DNA of 64,000 nucleotides. It comes from Escherichia phage BP32. Position 1 is the first letter of the stretch; each line of letters starts with the position of its first letter. Positions 3,570-59,860 of the stretch are shown here, piece by piece. The translations under genes and the position numbers were made by a program. Below the pieces are notes generated by a model. That model searched no databases. It worked only from the letters and a program-made list of their open reading frames with translations, and was not told the DNA's origin. The stretch is from the sequence record OR906198.1; one strand, written 5' to 3'.

Positions 3570-3599
3570 GTTTACAAGACTGTTCCTCTGTGGTACTAT
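3570..3599 (+). promoter_or_regulatory. T4-type early promoter (cassette copy 1)
   Basis: -35 GTTTAC, -10 TACTAT; 57-58 bp cassette nearly identical to 56752-56808. Confidence 0.65.
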
Positions 3600-55735: not shown

Positions 55736-56228
55736 TGACTTGACTAGTGAAATGAAGGTCAAAATTGCTGATACAGCAAGATACTCTTTAAAACAAAACC
55801 CGAACCAGGATAAAGCAGAAGTTATCGAAAGATGCCGTATCGCTGTGTACGCAGAGTTTTTTGTAGCAGATTGGCTAAGCGGGTATGTCAACAAAGGCCA
55901 AGAGGATGTTAATGATCCGTATACATACGCATGGGATGTATTGGCACATCCAAAATACTGCGGGCTTCGTGTAGAAGTTAAGACACATCAAACTGACTCA
56001 CGTTGGATTTCGGTAACAACAGGATGCAGCGGAGAGTATCCATACGGTTCTGGAATAAATCTAGGGCCCATTCTGAATCATCAAGTCGCTGACTGTATAA
56101 TTATATTCAACACTAAAGAAATTCATCCAGGTGTCATCCAGTACACTCCGAAGTTCATCGGTGATAGAGAAGACCTTCGTAAGGTTGTAAGAAAAAGCAA
56201 CTACAACGGATGGTATCTTTCTATTTAA
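55671..56228 (+). CDS. denB: endonuclease IV DenB (start uncertain)
   Basis: 185 aa track ORF, same length as T4 DenB and near rIIB; the 5' 65 nt overlap the upstream gene, so the true start may be downstream. Confidence 0.55.
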   Translation: MQKTNPGLQRLFQIPTFTLSNSDLTSEMKVKIADTARYSLKQNPNQDKAEVIERCRIAVYAEFFVADWLSGYVNKGQEDVNDPYTYAWDVLAHPKYCGLRVEVKTHQTDSRWISVTTGCSGEYPYGSGINLGPILNHQVADCIIIFNTKEIHPGVIQYTPKFIGDREDLRKVVRKSNYNGWYLSI

Positions 56229-56245
56229 AAAATTTTCACAAAACA

Positions 56246-56275
56246 GTTTACATACCACAAGGACCGTGGTACTAT
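56246..56275 (+). promoter_or_regulatory. T4-type early promoter
   Basis: -35 GTTTAC, spacer with CCACAAGGACCGTGG, -10 TACTAT. Confidence 0.65.
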
Positions 56276-56302
56276 ACAACTATCAGCTACGGAGGAGTAA
56301 AA

Positions 56303-56566
56303 ATGAAATTTAAATTTTATTACGCTAAACATAAAATAACTGATGAGTTTGTGTCAGTTGAATATTCTAGCGACGATGAAGGTATGATTTATACTCGCTT
56401 GGGACTATCGCATTGGGAGTCTGATACGCCTTATTTTTCAACTCCCGAAGAAATTACACGCTTAGTTAATGGTCATATGAATGACCACTGGAATGTAATT
56501 CTTTCAGATAGTCTTAAAGCGGCTATTAATAGTAATGAAATGAAAATCGCTGAGATTGAACTATGA
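56303..56566 (+). CDS. hypothetical protein (87 aa)
   Basis: ATG at 56303 after ACGGAGGAGTAAAA; track start 56210 runs through the promoter. Confidence 0.6.
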   Translation: MKFKFYYAKHKITDEFVSVEYSSDDEGMIYTRLGLSHWESDTPYFSTPEEITRLVNGHMNDHWNVILSDSLKAAINSNEMKIAEIEL

Positions 56567-56649
56567 GTTCATTGTGGTGGTGTTTCGTTTGGTTAATTAG
56601 TATTCCATTAATTTGTTTAACATTTACTTTTATGATGAGGTTATTATGA
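56563..56649 (+). CDS. hydrophobic micropeptide (28 aa)
   Basis: Hand-translated MSSLWWCFVWLISIPLICLTFTF...; ATGA overlaps on both sides. Confidence 0.3.
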   Translation: MSSLWWCFVWLISIPLICLTFTFMMRLL

Positions 56650-56744
56650 AAATTTTAAATTCTGTACTTATTGCTTGTGCGTGGTGGGTTGCGCAAGTTT
56701 CGGCAGTAGTGATTGGTATTCACATTTATTACGAATATTTTTAA
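56646..56744 (+). CDS. hydrophobic micropeptide (32 aa)
   Basis: Hand-translated MKILNSVLIACAWWVAQVSAVVIGIHIYYEYF. Confidence 0.3.
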   Translation: MKILNSVLIACAWWVAQVSAVVIGIHIYYEYF

Positions 56745-56751
56745 AAAAGTT

Positions 56752-56781
56752 GTTTACAAGACTGTTCCTCTGTGGTATTAT
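56752..56781 (+). promoter_or_regulatory. T4-type early promoter (cassette copy 2)
   Basis: -35 GTTTAC, -10 TATTAT; cassette nearly identical to 3570-3627. Confidence 0.6.
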
Positions 56782-56808
56782 TACCCTATCAACTACGGAG
56801 GAACAGAA

Positions 56809-56922
56809 ATGAAAAAGATTGTTAAAGCTATATGGAATGTAGTTATAATACTAGTAGTTTTGAGTATATTCCCAATCGTTTTAATGATTGATGTATTAAA
56901 CGCTTACTTTGGATTTATATGA
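56809..56922 (+). CDS. hydrophobic micropeptide (37 aa)
   Basis: ATG after ACGGAGGAACAGAA leader; MKKIVKAIWNVVIILVVLSIFPIVLMIDVL. Confidence 0.45.
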   Translation: MKKIVKAIWNVVIILVVLSIFPIVLMIDVLNAYFGFI

Positions 56923-56929
56923 GGAAAAT

Positions 56930-57127
56930 ATGAAGCGTAAACGCAGTGCTTTTACATTTATTGAATGGTTTTTCGATAATATTTTTCCAGCTTTATTCAT
57001 TTTCATGCTGATTTTCGCCTTAGGTTCAGTTGTAGTTGGAATCTATTTGATGGCAGTTGTCGGAATGGATATTCACCAAAATGGTTTGAAATCTGTGGTT
57101 GAAACAATTTGGAATGGTGTAAAATGA
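56930..57127 (+). CDS. small membrane protein (65 aa)
   Basis: ATG at 56930 after GAGGAAAAT; hydrophobic core. Confidence 0.5.
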   Translation: MKRKRSAFTFIEWFFDNIFPALFIFMLIFALGSVVVGIYLMAVVGMDIHQNGLKSVVETIWNGVK

Positions 57128-57234
57128 TGAATTTGCTGAGCGGTTGGTTTTATATTCTCATGTTTTACATTGGCGCAAATTTCCCATATTGGATGGGATG
57201 GTCAACAACTGCATTTGGATTTTATACTCCTTGA
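57124..57234 (+). CDS. hydrophobic micropeptide (36 aa)
   Basis: Hand-translated MMNLLSGWFYILMFYIGANFPYWMGW...; ATGA overlap. Confidence 0.3.
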   Translation: MMNLLSGWFYILMFYIGANFPYWMGWSTTAFGFYTP

Positions 57235-57242
57235 GGTGAATT

Positions 57243-57458
57243 ATGAAAATTTTTAAAGATGTAAAAGTTGGTGAAATTTTCTGTTTAGATAATGGTGATC
57301 AGTTAATTCGTATTTCGCCTCTTAAGAGCACCAGCGAGAAAATGACAGTTAATGCTACTTTAGCAAATAACAGTAATGAACGTTTCTGTATTGAAAATGA
57401 TACTGAAACTTATACTGTAGAAGAGTTTTGGGAATTGAGCGTCGACTGCGACGATTAA
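57243..57458 (+). CDS. hypothetical protein (71 aa)
   Basis: Track ORF; RBS GAGGTGAATT. Confidence 0.6.
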   Translation: MKIFKDVKVGEIFCLDNGDQLIRISPLKSTSEKMTVNATLANNSNERFCIENDTETYTVEEFWELSVDCDD

Positions 57459-57517
57459 TTTATCGGCCGTGTGTATTCATGCGGCCTTGGAGTAGAAAAT
57501 AATTAGAGGAAATTAAA

Positions 57518-57973
57518 ATGAAATATATGACTGTTACTGATCTGAATAATGCAGGTGCTACTGTTATTGGTACAATCAAGGGCGGTGAATGGGTTTTTGG
57601 AACTCCGCATAAAGACATTTTGTCTAAACCTGGATTTTACTTTTTAGTGAGCAAATTTGGTGGTCCATTTGATAGTCCGTGTGTATCTGCACGATTTTAT
57701 GTAGGTAATCAGCGTTCTAAGCAAGGATTCAGTGCAGTTCTAAGTCATATTCGTCAGCGTCGGTCTCAGCTTGCGCGTACTATTGCAAATAACAATGTTC
57801 CATACACGGTATTTTATCTACCTGCTTCTAAGATGAAACCTCTGACGACGGGATTTGGAAAGGGTCAGTTAGCTTTAGCGTTTACTCGTAATCATCATTC
57901 TGAGTATCAAACACTTGAAGAAATGAACCGTATGTTGGCTGATAACTTTAAATTTGTTTTGCAGGCATATTAA
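57518..57973 (+). CDS. ndd: nucleoid disruption protein Ndd
   Basis: 151 aa; length and locus (upstream of stp/ac/52) match T4 ndd. Confidence 0.8.
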
Positions 57974-58060: not shown

Positions 58061-58216
58061 GTGAATATTGCAAAATTATTAGGAGTTATTTCATTTATTT
58101 GTTGGATAGTAGCATGTGTTTTAACTATCTGTATAGATGCTAGCAGTGTATTTTCGCAAGCTTTAGCTCAGGGTATGTGTGCATATTTAACATTTGCGTT
58201 GTTATCTAATGATTAA
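58061..58216 (+). CDS. ac: acriflavine-resistance membrane peptide Ac (51 aa)
   Basis: GTG start after GAGGAAAAT; hydrophobic 51-aa product in the T4 ac position. Confidence 0.5.
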   Translation: MNIAKLLGVISFICWIVACVLTICIDASSVFSQALAQGMCAYLTFALLSND

Positions 58217-58349
58217 GAAAATCTTGGGCTATTCATTAGCCCTTGCTACTTTATTGGTAGCACTATATTATGGAGTAATGTTCGGATTAATTCAAGTCGT
58301 GCTTTTCATTTCTGATGTTATTATGGCACTACATTCACTAGTATGGTAA
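58209..58349 (+). CDS. small membrane peptide (46 aa)
   Basis: Hand-translated MIKKILGYSLALATLLVALYYGVMFG...; overlaps ac 3' end out of frame. Confidence 0.35.
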   Translation: MIKKILGYSLALATLLVALYYGVMFGLIQVVLFISDVIMALHSLVW

Positions 58350-58353
58350 ATTT

Positions 58354-59682
58354 ATGCAACTGAATAATCGCGATTTAAAAAGTATCATTGATAATGAAGC
58401 ATTGGCTTATGCTATGTACACGGTTGAAAATCGTGCTATTCCAAATATGATTGATGGATTTAAGCCAGTTCAACGATTTGTTATCGCTCGAGCTCTTGAT
58501 TTGGCACGGGGAAATAAAGATAAGTTTCACAAACTCGCTTCTATTGCAGGTGGTGTAGCTGACCTTGGATATCATCATGGCGAAAACTCTGCACAAGATG
58601 CGGGGGCTTTGATGGCTAACACTTGGAATAATAACTTTCCTTTGTTAGATGGTCAAGGAAACTTTGGTTCTCGTACCGTTCAAAAAGCAGCGGCAAGCCG
58701 TTATATTTTTGCTCGTGTAAGTAAAAATTTCTATAACGTATATAAAGATACTGAATATGCTCCGGTACATCAAGATAAAGAACACATTCCTCCTGCTTTC
58801 TATTTGCCTATTATTCCTACTGTTCTTCTTAATGGTGTTTCCGGTATTGCAACTGGTTATGCAACTTACATTCTTCCTCATAGTGTTTCTTCTGTCAAGA
58901 AAGCTGTACTACAAGCTCTTCAAGGAAAGAAAGTAACTAAACCGAAGGTAGAATTCCCAGAATTTCGTGGTGAAGTCGTTGAGATTGACGGGCAATATGA
59001 AATTCGTGGAACATATAAGTTTACTTCACGAACTCAAATGAATATCACTGAGATTCCGTATAAGTATGATCGTGAAACTTATGTGAGTAAAATCTTAGAC
59101 CCGCTTGAAGATAAGGGCTTCATTACATGGGATGATGCTTGCGGTGAGCATGGTTTTGGCTTCAAAGTTAAATTCCGCAAAGAATATTCTTTGAGTGATA
59201 ACGAAGAAGAACGCCATGCAAAAATTATGAAAGACTTTGGGTTGATTGAGCGTCGTTCCCAAAATATTACAGTCATCAACGAGAAAGGAAAGTTACAAGT
59301 TTACGATAACGTAGTTGATTTAATTAAAGACTTCGTTGAAGTTCGTAAAACTTATGTCCAAAAGCGAATTGATAACAAAATCAAAGAAACTGAATCAGCA
59401 TTTCGTTTAGCCTTTGCCAAGGCGCATTTCATTAAGAAAGTAATTTCAGGTGAAATTGTTGTGCAGGGTAAAACTCGCAAAGAACTGACCGAAGAACTTT
59501 CTAAAATTGAGATGTATTCTTCTTATGTCGATAAACTAGTCGGAATGAATATTTTTCATATGACTTCCGACGAAGCAAAGAAACTTGCTGAAGAAGCTAA
59601 AACTAAGAAAGAAGAAAACGAATATTGGAAAACTACTGATGTAGTTACAGAATACACTAAAGATTTAGAGGAAATCAAATGA
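58354..59682 (+). CDS. 52: DNA topoisomerase II medium subunit gp52 (GyrA-like)
   Basis: 442 aa; active-site region AASRYIFARV; length equals T4 gp52. Confidence 0.9.
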   Translation: MQLNNRDLKSIIDNEALAYAMYTVENRAIPNMIDGFKPVQRFVIARALDLARGNKDKFHKLASIAGGVADLGYHHGENSAQDAGALMANTWNNNFPLLDGQGNFGSRTVQKAAASRYIFARVSKNFYNVYKDTEYAPVHQDKEHIPPAFYLPIIPTVLLNGVSGIATGYATYILPHSVSSVKKAVLQALQGKKVTKPKVEFPEFRGEVVEIDGQYEIRGTYKFTSRTQMNITEIPYKYDRETYVSKILDPLEDKGFITWDDACGEHGFGFKVKFRKEYSLSDNEEERHAKIMKDFGLIERRSQNITVINEKGKLQVYDNVVDLIKDFVEVRKTYVQKRIDNKIKETESAFRLAFAKAHFIKKVISGEIVVQGKTRKELTEELSKIEMYSSYVDKLVGMNIFHMTSDEAKKLAEEAKTKKEENEYWKTTDVVTEYTKDLEEIK

Positions 59683-59828
59683 GTCCATTCATTGGTATTA
59701 CAAGCGCGGCGTTAGTATCTGGCGGCATTTTACTAGCGGGTTTAGGTGTTGTTCCAGCCGTAGCAGGAGGTCTTCTTGCGTTCGGCATTCAACGCGTTAT
59801 CATGACAGTTATCACAGTCATGCAGTAA
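59679..59828 (+). CDS. small membrane peptide (49 aa)
   Basis: Hand-translated MSPFIGITSAALVSGGILLAGLGVV...; ATGA overlap with gene 52; terminator follows. Confidence 0.4.
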   Translation: MSPFIGITSAALVSGGILLAGLGVVPAVAGGLLAFGIQRVIMTVITVMQ

Positions 59829-59833
59829 TTTTA

Positions 59834-59860
59834 GGGAGAGCCGAGGCTCTCCCTTTTTAT
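59834..59860 (+). terminator. rho-independent terminator after the gene 52 block
   Basis: GGGAGAGCC ... GGCTCTCCC hairpin followed by TTTTT. Confidence 0.8.

Follow-up and report, generated by a model that had tools for sequence, protein, structure and literature searches.

Sequence evidence that the ndd.6–ndd.2 micro-genes of a T4-like phage are genuine, conserved early genes

In the reference genome of phage T4 (NC_000866), a run of very small genes, ndd.6, ndd.5, ndd.4, ndd.3/ndd.2a and ndd.2 (T4p275-T4p270), lies in the interval between denB and ndd, and two others, 52.1 (T4p265) and motA.1 (T4p263), lie beside gene 52. Transcription data assign T4 ndd.2 to ndd.6 to the early class (PMC9697503, Table S2). 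[quoted passage not shown] 2010, PMC2839356), and the T4 membrane protein Ac is assumed to interact with or block the AcrAB-TolC pump (PMC13250531).

The 64,000-nt stretch of Escherichia phage BP32 analysed here (the window; OR906198.1) almost certainly carries the ndd.6–ndd.2 micro-gene cluster of a T4-like phage of the genus Tequatrovirus. The cluster region is 97% identical to Tequatrovirus genomes, its proteins are 89-98% identical to the T4 region by tblastn, and there are one-to-one T4 counterparts of ndd.6, ndd.5, ndd.4, ndd.3 plus ndd.2a (a single gene here), ndd.2, 52.1 and motA.1. The genes run in the order denB, 87-aa gene, ndd.6, ndd.5, ndd.4, 65-aa gene, ndd.2, ndd.1, ndd (Table 1), and what they share with T4 is their place (the denB-ndd interval or beside gene 52), their overlaps and the early promoter, with protein identities of 89-100%. 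Every ORF matches a PHROG family, with E-values of 2e-16 to 3e-30 (families 8851, 5011, 3098, 2401, 4135, 3595 and 3487 for the micro-genes), and two of the micro-ORFs have Pfam families as well, DUF7248 for the 65-aa gene and DUF7396 for 52.1. These DUF and PHROG matches are full length and above the curated cut-offs, and the families, which have no assigned function, show no difference from the window proteins. Where PHROG labels them 'outer membrane protein' or 'periplasmic protein', these are location predictions inherited from the T4 record and are not experimental.

A preliminary description of this DNA had pointed to five ORFs of 28, 32, 37, 65 and 36 aa ahead of ndd and to hydrophobic peptides on both sides of gene 52. 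All five ORFs are found with those sizes and coordinates, and the flanking peptides are real, 52.1 overlapping ac by 8 nt and motA.1 overlapping the gene 52 stop in an ATGA. The ATGA overlaps described within the cluster join the 87-aa gene to the 28-aa ORF, the 28-aa to the 32-aa ORF and the 65-aa to the 36-aa ORF, and the 37-aa ORF is indeed preceded by a cassette promoter of the sigma-70/T4-early type. The implied novelty does not hold: the cluster was correctly spotted but has long been catalogued in phage T4, where all of these genes are annotated in the reference genome, in addition to the PHROG families for all and the Pfam DUFs for two. That such genes are routinely missed by annotation is true of some only. 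Among 15 annotated Tequatrovirus records, all 15 include the 65-aa gene, 14 include ndd.5 and 13 include ndd.2, but 9 include ndd.4 and 3 include ndd.6. The description had overlooked a sixth small gene, ndd.1, which encodes a soluble protein of 71 aa and separates the cluster from ndd.

Table 1. Features of the micro-gene cluster and its surroundings, in window coordinates.
Feature	Position	Strand	Details
Early promoter of the 87-aa gene/ndd.6/ndd.5 unit	56247..56275	+	TTTACA-17-TACTAT with TG (promoter scan)
87-aa gene, soluble, early	56303..56566	+	phrog_2390; probably translationally coupled to ndd.6
ndd.6 homologue, 28 aa, one hydrophobic helix	56563..56649	+	phrog_8851, E=2e-16; 92% identity to T4 ndd.6
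ndd.5 homologue, 32 aa, one hydrophobic helix, GAGG SD	56646..56744	+	phrog_5011, E=4e-26
Early promoter cassette before ndd.4	56753..56781	+	TTTACA-17-TATTAT plus TG extension; best-scoring promoter match of the region
15-bp RNA hairpin, -10 box in loop	56762..56806	+	predicted fold
ndd.4 homologue, 37 aa	56809..56922	+	phrog_3098; N-terminal lysines, then one long helix
65-aa gene, DUF7248	56930..57127	+	Pfam PF23906, E=4e-20, full length
ndd.2 homologue, 36 aa (35 from second ATG)	57124..57234	+	phrog_4135
ndd.1 homologue, 71 aa, soluble	57243..57458	+	T4 and PHROG matches
ndd, nucleoid disruption protein	57518..57973	+	96% identity to T4 Ndd
stp, 26 aa	57973..58053	+	100% identity to T4 Stp
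ac, 51-aa membrane protein, acridine sensitivity	58061..58216	+	96% identity to T4 Ac
52.1 homologue, 46 aa, hydrophobic, DUF7396	58209..58349	+	PF24129, E=3.5e-23
Gene 52, topoisomerase II subunit	58354..59682	+	99% identity to T4 gp52
motA.1 homologue, 49 aa, Gly/Ala-rich, hydrophobic	59679..59828	+	phrog_3487
Intrinsic terminator closing the transcription unit	59833..59854	+	9-bp GC-rich stem, then T-run

T4 lacks the 87-aa gene that precedes ndd.6 in the window, and the last 8 codons of that gene remain in T4 as an ORF overlapping the ndd.6 start. Where the window has a single 65-aa frame, the T4 record is split into ndd.3 and ndd.2a. This split traces to one base, near position 166,625, that is missing only from the original reference sequence, through either a sequence error or a mutation of that stock. 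The start of ndd.4 also differs, being an ATG served by an SD in the window (37 aa), whereas the T4 annotation begins at an ATG inside the SD (42 aa).

Membrane helices are predicted both from Kyte-Doolittle hydropathy and by AlphaFold2. The best 19-residue Kyte-Doolittle means lie at 2.2-3.05 in four of the five ORFs, enough for a bilayer-spanning helix, and 'strongly hydrophobic' is a fair description of these four; the 36-aa ndd.2 is only moderately so, an aromatic-rich and uncharged protein with a maximum of 1.17, borderline for a membrane helix. It has a motif of its own, N-x-P-Y-W-x-G, kept in 14 of 36 loci, as ndd.6 has a motif W-C-x-x-W-x-x-x-I-P-x-x-C that is kept in other genera. The ndd.5 protein, which bears the label 'outer membrane protein', is confined to Tequatrovirus; read by eye, L-I-A-C at residues 8-11 fits the lipobox pattern, with a would-be signal peptide of only 10 residues and a remainder of 22 residues that is itself a hydrophobic helix. 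The lead gene of the conserved set, ndd.4, encodes a protein with an Asp28 that is invariant in the alignment and an AlphaFold2 model consisting of a single helix at residues 2-36 (pLDDT 92.8). In the 65-aa protein a basic N-terminus is followed by a TM helix and then by a conserved C-terminal helix with G-L-K...W-x-G, and AlphaFold2 models it as helices 6-17, 19-51 and 53-63. It matches DUF7248 with 71.9 bits (cut-off 27) over residues 6-63 and profile positions 4-57 of 58, residues G52, L53, K54 and G63 are invariant, and its homologues fall into 112 database clusters, exclusively from T4-like phages. The 52.1 protein matches DUF7396 with 81.9 bits (cut-off 27) over positions 1-46 of 46. The curated defence and counter-defence models of PADLOC gave no significant match for the cluster proteins; a resemblance of ndd.4 to KwaA (E=0.008, 13.8 bits, TM segment only) was judged to be composition noise.

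The best overall explanation of the locus, which we consider quite likely, is that of real early micro-genes with products proposed to be membrane peptides acting on the envelope. Their mode of action is held more tentatively: they may be single-helix inner-membrane microproteins acting on envelope proteins, a mechanism that rests on analogy. During the first minutes of infection the peptides would enter the inner membrane, with the basic N-terminus of ndd.4 and of the 65-aa protein on the cytoplasmic side, and would contact host or competitor envelope proteins helix to helix; the outcome would be a conditional advantage, for example in envelope take-over or counter-defence. The analogy is with T4 Ac and with regulators of the type of AcrZ, a small protein that binds AcrB. 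These are likewise helical peptides of about 50 aa or fewer, and Ac is encoded in the same early operon, but there is no sequence similarity and the likeness extends no further than the suggested mode of action. A role for the peptides in anchoring Ndd was rated unlikely, because cloned ndd by itself disrupts the nucleoid.

The preliminary description had put the peptides forward as candidates for host take-over or superinfection exclusion. They could be dedicated superinfection-exclusion or lysis-timing factors, comparable to T4 Imm and Sp or to a holin-antiholin pair. T4 Imm and Sp are also early, small and membrane-directed, but we regard this proposal as improbable: their sequences show no relationship to a named PHROG or Pfam family, and the genes imm, sp, t, rI and rIII already explain exclusion and lysis inhibition in T4 on genetic grounds. 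The knock-downs argue in the same direction, as CRISPRi-ART targeting of each gene in T4 is scored 'Not Fit', with no measurable effect on fitness in the laboratory host (PMC11879866, supplementary file 15). The main texts on HIDEN-SEQ and CRISPRi-ART do not mention these genes, which the CRISPRi-ART supplement covers.

The genes are divided between two early transcription units: the first is read from the promoter ahead of the 87-aa gene and also contains ndd.6 and ndd.5, and the second is read from the cassette promoter through ndd.4, the 65-aa gene, ndd.2, ndd.1, ndd, stp, ac, 52.1, gene 52 and motA.1, up to the terminator at 59833. There are 12 similar early-promoter cassettes on the + strand of the window, the promoter of the first unit among them, and the ndd.4 promoter with its SD recurs almost verbatim at window position 3571. 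Coupled translation is probable for ndd.6, ndd.2 and 52.1, since they are without a good SD and overlap the preceding stop; in ndd.6, which has no strong SD of its own, the start overlaps the upstream stop as ATGA. It could then be supposed that translation itself matters and not its products, the ORFs serving as leaders or couplers that hold ribosomes on the polycistronic early message and adjust the expression of ndd and gene 52. Overlaps of ATGA or 8 nt at four junctions, three ORFs without an SD of their own and a T4 remnant that still overlaps the ndd.6 start after loss of the 87-aa gene would all suit such a role. It is nevertheless highly improbable, because the amino-acid sequence is kept (Asp28 in ndd.4; G-L-K...G in DUF7248) and pN/pS is low, and because ndd has a good SD of its own, 60 nt downstream of ndd.1.

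The hairpin ahead of ndd.4 pairs the promoter spacer (56762-56776) with the ndd.4 SD region (56792-56806), with a dG of -24.1 kcal/mol and a z of -4.4, and none of 200 shuffles folds as well. The hairpin can form on read-through RNA alone; RNA starting downstream of the ndd.4 promoter is unstructured. In these predicted folds, the ndd.4 SD is sequestered on read-through RNA and free on RNA from its own promoter. We compared lineages by per-sequence folds and shuffles instead of a consensus fold, and in all 14 lineages tested the MFE fold pairs the ndd.4 SD (z <= -2.5 in 12), mostly with the promoter -35/spacer region and via sequences that differ between lineages. From the MAFFT-aligned upstream regions of ndd.4, RNAalifold derived no consensus structure, because the offset of the anti-SD arm varies among genera, and Rfam has no match inside the cluster. 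The arrangement resembles the PeSL cassettes in its strong early promoter and stem-loop adjoining small genes, in its near-identical copy elsewhere in the genome and in a gene-content difference from T4 at a cassette junction (PMC2839356). It differs from them in having the downstream gene's ribosome-binding site as the 3' arm of the stem and in lacking a T-run after it, which gives it the appearance of a translational gate more than of a terminator; the terminator scan does not list the stem.

A stronger form of the membrane-peptide reading would unite ndd.4, the DUF7248 protein and ndd.2 in a single conserved membrane module of the immediate-early class, led by ndd.4 and directed at a single host envelope target. 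Such a module would be found in T4-like phages of Enterobacterales, with ndd.4 always first and the partners either spaced 7-10 nt downstream or in a 4-nt overlap. Only transcripts from the module's own promoter would be translated, since on read-through RNA the promoter spacer masks the ribosome site, and the three peptides would assemble into one small hetero-oligomer acting in the first minutes of infection. We think this unlikely.

Judged from their conservation, the micro-ORFs are genuine genes, not products of chance. Nearly every Tequatrovirus sequence (about 20 of 21) keeps the frames intact, and the variants pooled over the micro-ORFs in 21 such sequences comprise 59 synonymous and 31 non-synonymous changes, giving a pN/pS of 0.13 (binomial p=1e-20). 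This purifying selection on frames conserved in related phages is the reverse of the outcome that the preliminary description had named as speaking against its ORFs. By gene, pN/pS is 0.08 for the 65-aa gene, 0.12 for ndd.5 and 0.13 for ndd.2, and the alternative frames of these three show no such bias (pN/pS >=0.7 or zero synonymous variants). Within the genus, ndd.4 has only 9 variants, with a pN/pS of 0.5, and the selection signal of ndd.6 is not distinguishable from frame +1; the coding status of these two therefore rests mainly on conservation across genera. Homologues in other genera occupy the same position at 31 of 36 loci for ndd.4 and for 52.1, 18 for the 65-aa gene, 14 for ndd.2 and 13 for ndd.6, with order and spacing (7-10 nt or -4 nt) kept, and the dN of ndd.4 is close to that of Ndd while dS is saturated. 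Natural frameshifts are occasional, in ndd.2 of slur11 and ECO4 and at the ndd.6 C-terminus in one IMG/VR contig. When the 672-nt region was shuffled 2000 times with dinucleotides preserved, a mean of 0.69 hydrophobic ATG-ORFs arose, against 4 observed, and coverage as high as the 73.5% observed arose in just 0.1% of shuffles (P=0.001).

At the level of protein, time-resolved shotgun proteomics of T4 has no peptide from ndd.2 to ndd.6 (Class_P = NA), and ndd.1 was detected early in infection (PMC9697503). Among the ndd.2 to ndd.6 products, SVVETIWNGVK from the 65-aa protein is the only tryptic peptide of ordinary size, the others giving zero or one very hydrophobic peptide of 26-36 residues, and with so few suitable peptides the missing detection is weak counter-evidence. 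A reading of the micro-ORFs as non-functional relics, or as frames left open by chance in intergenic DNA whose AT-richness favours T-rich codons and with them hydrophobic residues, is a very remote prospect: hydrophobic out-of-frame ORFs do exist in the genome (for example 58757-58936 inside gene 52), and proteomics and knock-downs are both silent, but a selective bias specific to the annotated frames of the 65-aa gene, ndd.5 and ndd.2, frames open in nearly every genome, coverage seldom reached by shuffles and homologues with invariant residues in genera with saturated synonymous sites effectively refute it.

The cluster reveals no new kind of system. The evidence that these are true genes, namely invariant residues and conserved order, tells annotators to retain the micro-genes, of which ndd.6 and ndd.4 are often dropped. 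They form part of the large 'dark matter' of early T4 functions, unexplained genes that are conserved and under selection yet dispensable in the laboratory, and ndd.4, DUF7248 and 52.1 are the best candidates for targeted work on how T4-like phages may manipulate the host envelope.

The hydrophobic micro-ORFs that the preliminary description placed before ndd and beside gene 52 are all present with the lengths and coordinates it claimed, as are its ATGA overlaps (87-aa gene with 28-aa ORF, 28-aa with 32-aa, 65-aa with 36-aa), and strong hydrophobicity holds for four of the five before ndd; the 36-aa one lacks charged residues and is rich in aromatic ones. By sequence, they are the T4 genes ndd.6, ndd.5, ndd.4, ndd.3/ndd.2a and ndd.2, and the two similar peptides flanking gene 52 correspond to 52.1 and motA.1 (T4 and window micro-genes are 89-100% identical by tblastn). 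The genes follow one another as at the end of the T4 map when it is read along the early strand (rIIB, denB.1, denB, ndd.6 to ndd.1, ndd, stp, ac, 52.1, 52, motA.1, motA), and for 56200-57520 there are 496 matching phage records, 80-99% identical (best match, 97.4%), nearly all of them Tequatrovirus phages of Escherichia, Shigella, Yersinia or Salmonella. A PHROG family was found for every micro-ORF, and Pfam assigns the 65-aa ORF to DUF7248 and 52.1 to DUF7396, both far over curated cut-offs. With such counterparts in T4, PHROG and Pfam, the ORFs are known entries, listed as proteins of unknown function, and none is new in kind. That annotation routinely misses them is true of some, with ndd.6 called in 3 and ndd.4 in 9 of 15 annotated Tequatrovirus records, but not of ndd.2 (13), ndd.5 (14) or the 65-aa gene (15); the PEC04 annotation also lacks 52.1 and motA.1, and the T4 reference record annotates all these micro-genes.

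Micro-genes and neighbouring features in the window
Feature	Position	Strand	Remarks
12-mer ATGAAAATCGCT	28943		start of cassette-led gene
Early promoter	56247	+	before 87-aa gene
87-aa gene	56303-56566		upstream of ndd.6
12-mer ATGAAAATCGCT	56540		codon 80 of 87-aa gene
ndd.6	56563-56649		28 aa
ndd.5	56646-56744		32 aa
Early promoter	56753	+	before ndd.4; TTTACA-17-TATTAT with TG; region's best promoter match
Hairpin arm	56762-56776		promoter spacer
Hairpin arm	56792-56806		ndd.4 SD region
ndd.4	56809-56922		37 aa
65-aa gene	56930-57127		ndd.3/ndd.2a in T4
ndd.2	57124-57234		36 aa
52.1	58209-58349
59-aa ORF	58757-58936		+1 frame inside gene 52
motA.1	59679-59828
Strong terminator	59833-59854		after motA.1
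Early promoter	59884	+	before motA

In a time-resolved transcriptome and proteome of T4, ndd.2, ndd.2a, ndd.3, ndd.4, ndd.5, ndd.6, ac and stp have RNA class 'early' and protein class 'NA' (undetected), and Ndd and Ndd.1 are seen as early proteins (PMC9697503, Table S2). The absence of ndd.2-ndd.6 peptides is weak negative evidence, because the sequences give few ordinary tryptic peptides: ndd.2 is without any Lys or Arg, ndd.6, ndd.5 and ndd.4 have one very hydrophobic tryptic peptide apiece (26-31 residues), and the 65-aa protein alone has a normal one. When targeted by CRISPRi-ART in T4, motA.1, 52.1, ac, stp, ndd and each of ndd.1 to ndd.6 score 'Not Fit', and gene 52 scores 'Fit' (PMC11879866, supplementary file 15), so all the former are dispensable in a laboratory host. 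The preliminary description was right to see real membrane-peptide genes here, and the host-takeover or superinfection-exclusion function it suggested for them stays a candidate role; that these dispensable genes encode dedicated exclusion or lysis factors strikes us as unlikely.

On its + strand the window has 12 early promoters of T4 type (TTTAC-N-TGGTAYTAT). As proposed, ndd.4 is promoter-driven, sitting behind the best match with its own GGAGG Shine-Dalgarno (SD), in a cassette that from -35 box through SD is nearly identical to one at 3571. On read-through RNA from upstream, promoter spacer and SD region pair over 15 bp in a hairpin (dG -24.1 kcal/mol, z -4.4) equalled by 0 of 200 shuffles; RNA starting downstream of the promoter folds without structure. 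The SD is paired in the minimum-energy fold in 14 of 14 lineages (z <= -2.5 in 12), and in other genera its partner is mostly the promoter -35/spacer region with differing sequences (for example, CATCTCC/GGAGATG instead of TTCCTC/GAGGAA). The cassette fits the promoter-early stem-loop cassettes described in T4-type phages (PMC2839356) and, as modelled, looks like a translational gate; judging from the folding, ndd.4 would be translated solely off its own-promoter transcript.

The check that the preliminary description set, in-frame conservation in related phages, comes out in its favour, since frames, residues and motifs are conserved across the genus and beyond. An iterated profile search of 36 IMG/VR loci retrieved through their Ndd (46-95% identical) found homologues of ndd.4 and 52.1 in 31 loci each, of the 65-aa gene in 18, ndd.2 in 14, ndd.6 in 13 and motA.1 in 8, with those of ndd.5 confined to the 5 closest. 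Asp28 of ndd.4 is invariant among 15 diverse aligned sequences, and conservation extends to G52-L53-K54 and G63 of the 65-aa protein, N-x-P-Y-W-x-G of ndd.2, W-C-x-x-W-x-x-x-I-P-x-x-C of ndd.6 and L-F-I-S-D-V-I...W of 52.1; dN of ndd.4, against loci with saturated synonymous sites, is ~0.30 and equals that of Ndd. Leader ORFs, of which translation alone would matter, are a quite improbable explanation of genes with such residues. The order across genera is constant: ndd.4 leads, at 7-10 nt come the 65-aa gene and/or ndd.2 (overlapping, where both are found in this order, by 4 nt, or 1 nt if ndd.2 uses its second ATG), then ndd.1 where present, and ndd last. The first ndd.2 ATG (window 57124-57130) is ATA in several relatives (loci L004, L005, L040, L042), where the 65-aa gene stop is TAA and initiation is from the second ATG, giving 35 aa. 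The 87-aa gene and ndd.6 co-occur in a second genus-level group too (L008-L014). Against that group, 52.1 has 89-93% protein identity and dS ~0.5 and stp is 80-100% identical, and the adjacent gp52 is 70-81% identical with saturated dS (~1.9), which suggests that lineages exchanged the stp-52.1 segment by recombination fairly recently, or that the sequence immediately before gene 52 is under extra constraint at the nucleotide level.

Four hydrophobic ATG-ORFs are observed against a mean of 0.69, at the same threshold, in 2000 dinucleotide-preserving shuffles of the ORF region, just 0.1% of which match the observed ORF coverage, and the region's minus strand has none. When the window is aligned with 20 other Tequatrovirus sequences (two T4 records, T6, RB10, PEC04, IMG/VR contigs and others), all five frames are open in nearly every one of the 21, the exceptions being the T4 reference, ndd.2 frameshifts in slur11 and ECO4, and one frameshift at the last codons of ndd.6. 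Variable sites in the five genes are 59 synonymous and 31 non-synonymous against a synonymous expectation of 20% (pooled pN/pS = 0.13; binomial p=1e-20), and the two alternative frames of the 65-aa gene, ndd.5 and ndd.2 have no such bias (pN/pS >=0.7, or no synonymous variants). Within the genus, ndd.4 varies too little (3 synonymous and 6 non-synonymous variants), and for ndd.6 the signal fails to separate its own frame from frame +1, so the coding case for these two rests on the cross-genus evidence. That the ORFs arose by chance is hardly credible. The very hydrophobic 59-aa ORF inside gene 52 recurs in every related locus only because gene 52 is conserved; hydrophobic alternative-frame ORFs of an AT-rich genome can thus mimic conservation.

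The T4 split into ndd.3 (26 aa) and ndd.2a (40 aa) comes from one absent base just past the ATG of the 65-aa gene (ATGAAGCGT at 56930-56945, ATGAACGT in the 166620-166630 region of NC_000866). The base is absent only in X75802, AF158101 and NC_000866, which are one original sequence, and present in T4T HM137666, KJ477684, KJ477685, OZ209023, OZ209057 and ~460 other records, so ndd.3 is probably spurious, and the loss is a sequencing error in the reference or else a mutation specific to that stock. The CRISPRi-ART supplement lists ndd.3 as a PHROG singleton (PMC11879866, supplementary file 15). T4 ndd.4 (166764) is annotated as 42 aa from an ATG within the SD (ATGGAGG); the product is likely the 37-aa form, since the window has ACG in place of that ATG and the downstream SD-served ATG is common to all genera. 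The 87-aa gene is absent from T4, where the leader of the other cassette (28943 type) is fused upstream of ndd.6 at the 12-mer, and what is left is a mini-ORF of 8 codons (MKIAEIEL) with a stop that still overlaps the start of ndd.6; this resembles a cassette-mediated recombination event in which translational coupling was kept.

AlphaFold2 models from small alignments give ndd.4 a single unbroken helix (residues 2-36, mean pLDDT 92.8) and the 65-aa protein three helices, a short one at the N-terminus, a long one at 19-51 and a C-terminal one at 53-63 (overall pLDDT 75; ~90 in the core of 19-51). By the positive-inside rule, the Lys/Arg-rich N-termini of both are predicted to be cytoplasmic, and the conserved Asp28 of ndd.4 and the G-L-K...W-N-G helix of the 65-aa protein to be on the side of the periplasm. 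In T4-derived annotation, the labels 'outer membrane protein' and 'periplasmic protein' are location predictions, and for single-hydrophobic-helix peptides of 28-37 residues an inner-membrane location is far more likely. Residues 8-11 of ndd.5 (window 56646-56680) are L-I-A-C, a match to the lipobox pattern that may be the source of the former label; lipoprotein processing seems unlikely, because the would-be signal peptide has 10 residues only and the remainder is a hydrophobic helix.

DUF7248 is restricted to T4-like phages of Enterobacterales (112 clusters), its named matches being T4-like phages or bacterial-labelled records that are phage-genome-sized contigs or short partial fragments. 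We tentatively favor, as a general mechanism, accessory microproteins acting on host envelope proteins in the membrane, because the genes are expressed early, their products each have one predicted membrane helix with invariant polar or charged residues at the predicted membrane edge, and they are strongly conserved yet laboratory-dispensable and confined to T4-like Enterobacterales phages. The closest precedent is Ac of the same operon, a 51-aa protein that renders infected cells acriflavine-sensitive, for which an interaction with the AcrAB-TolC pump is assumed (PMC13250531). Inside the membrane, such microproteins would bind proteins of the host envelope and so help the phage under particular host or competition conditions.
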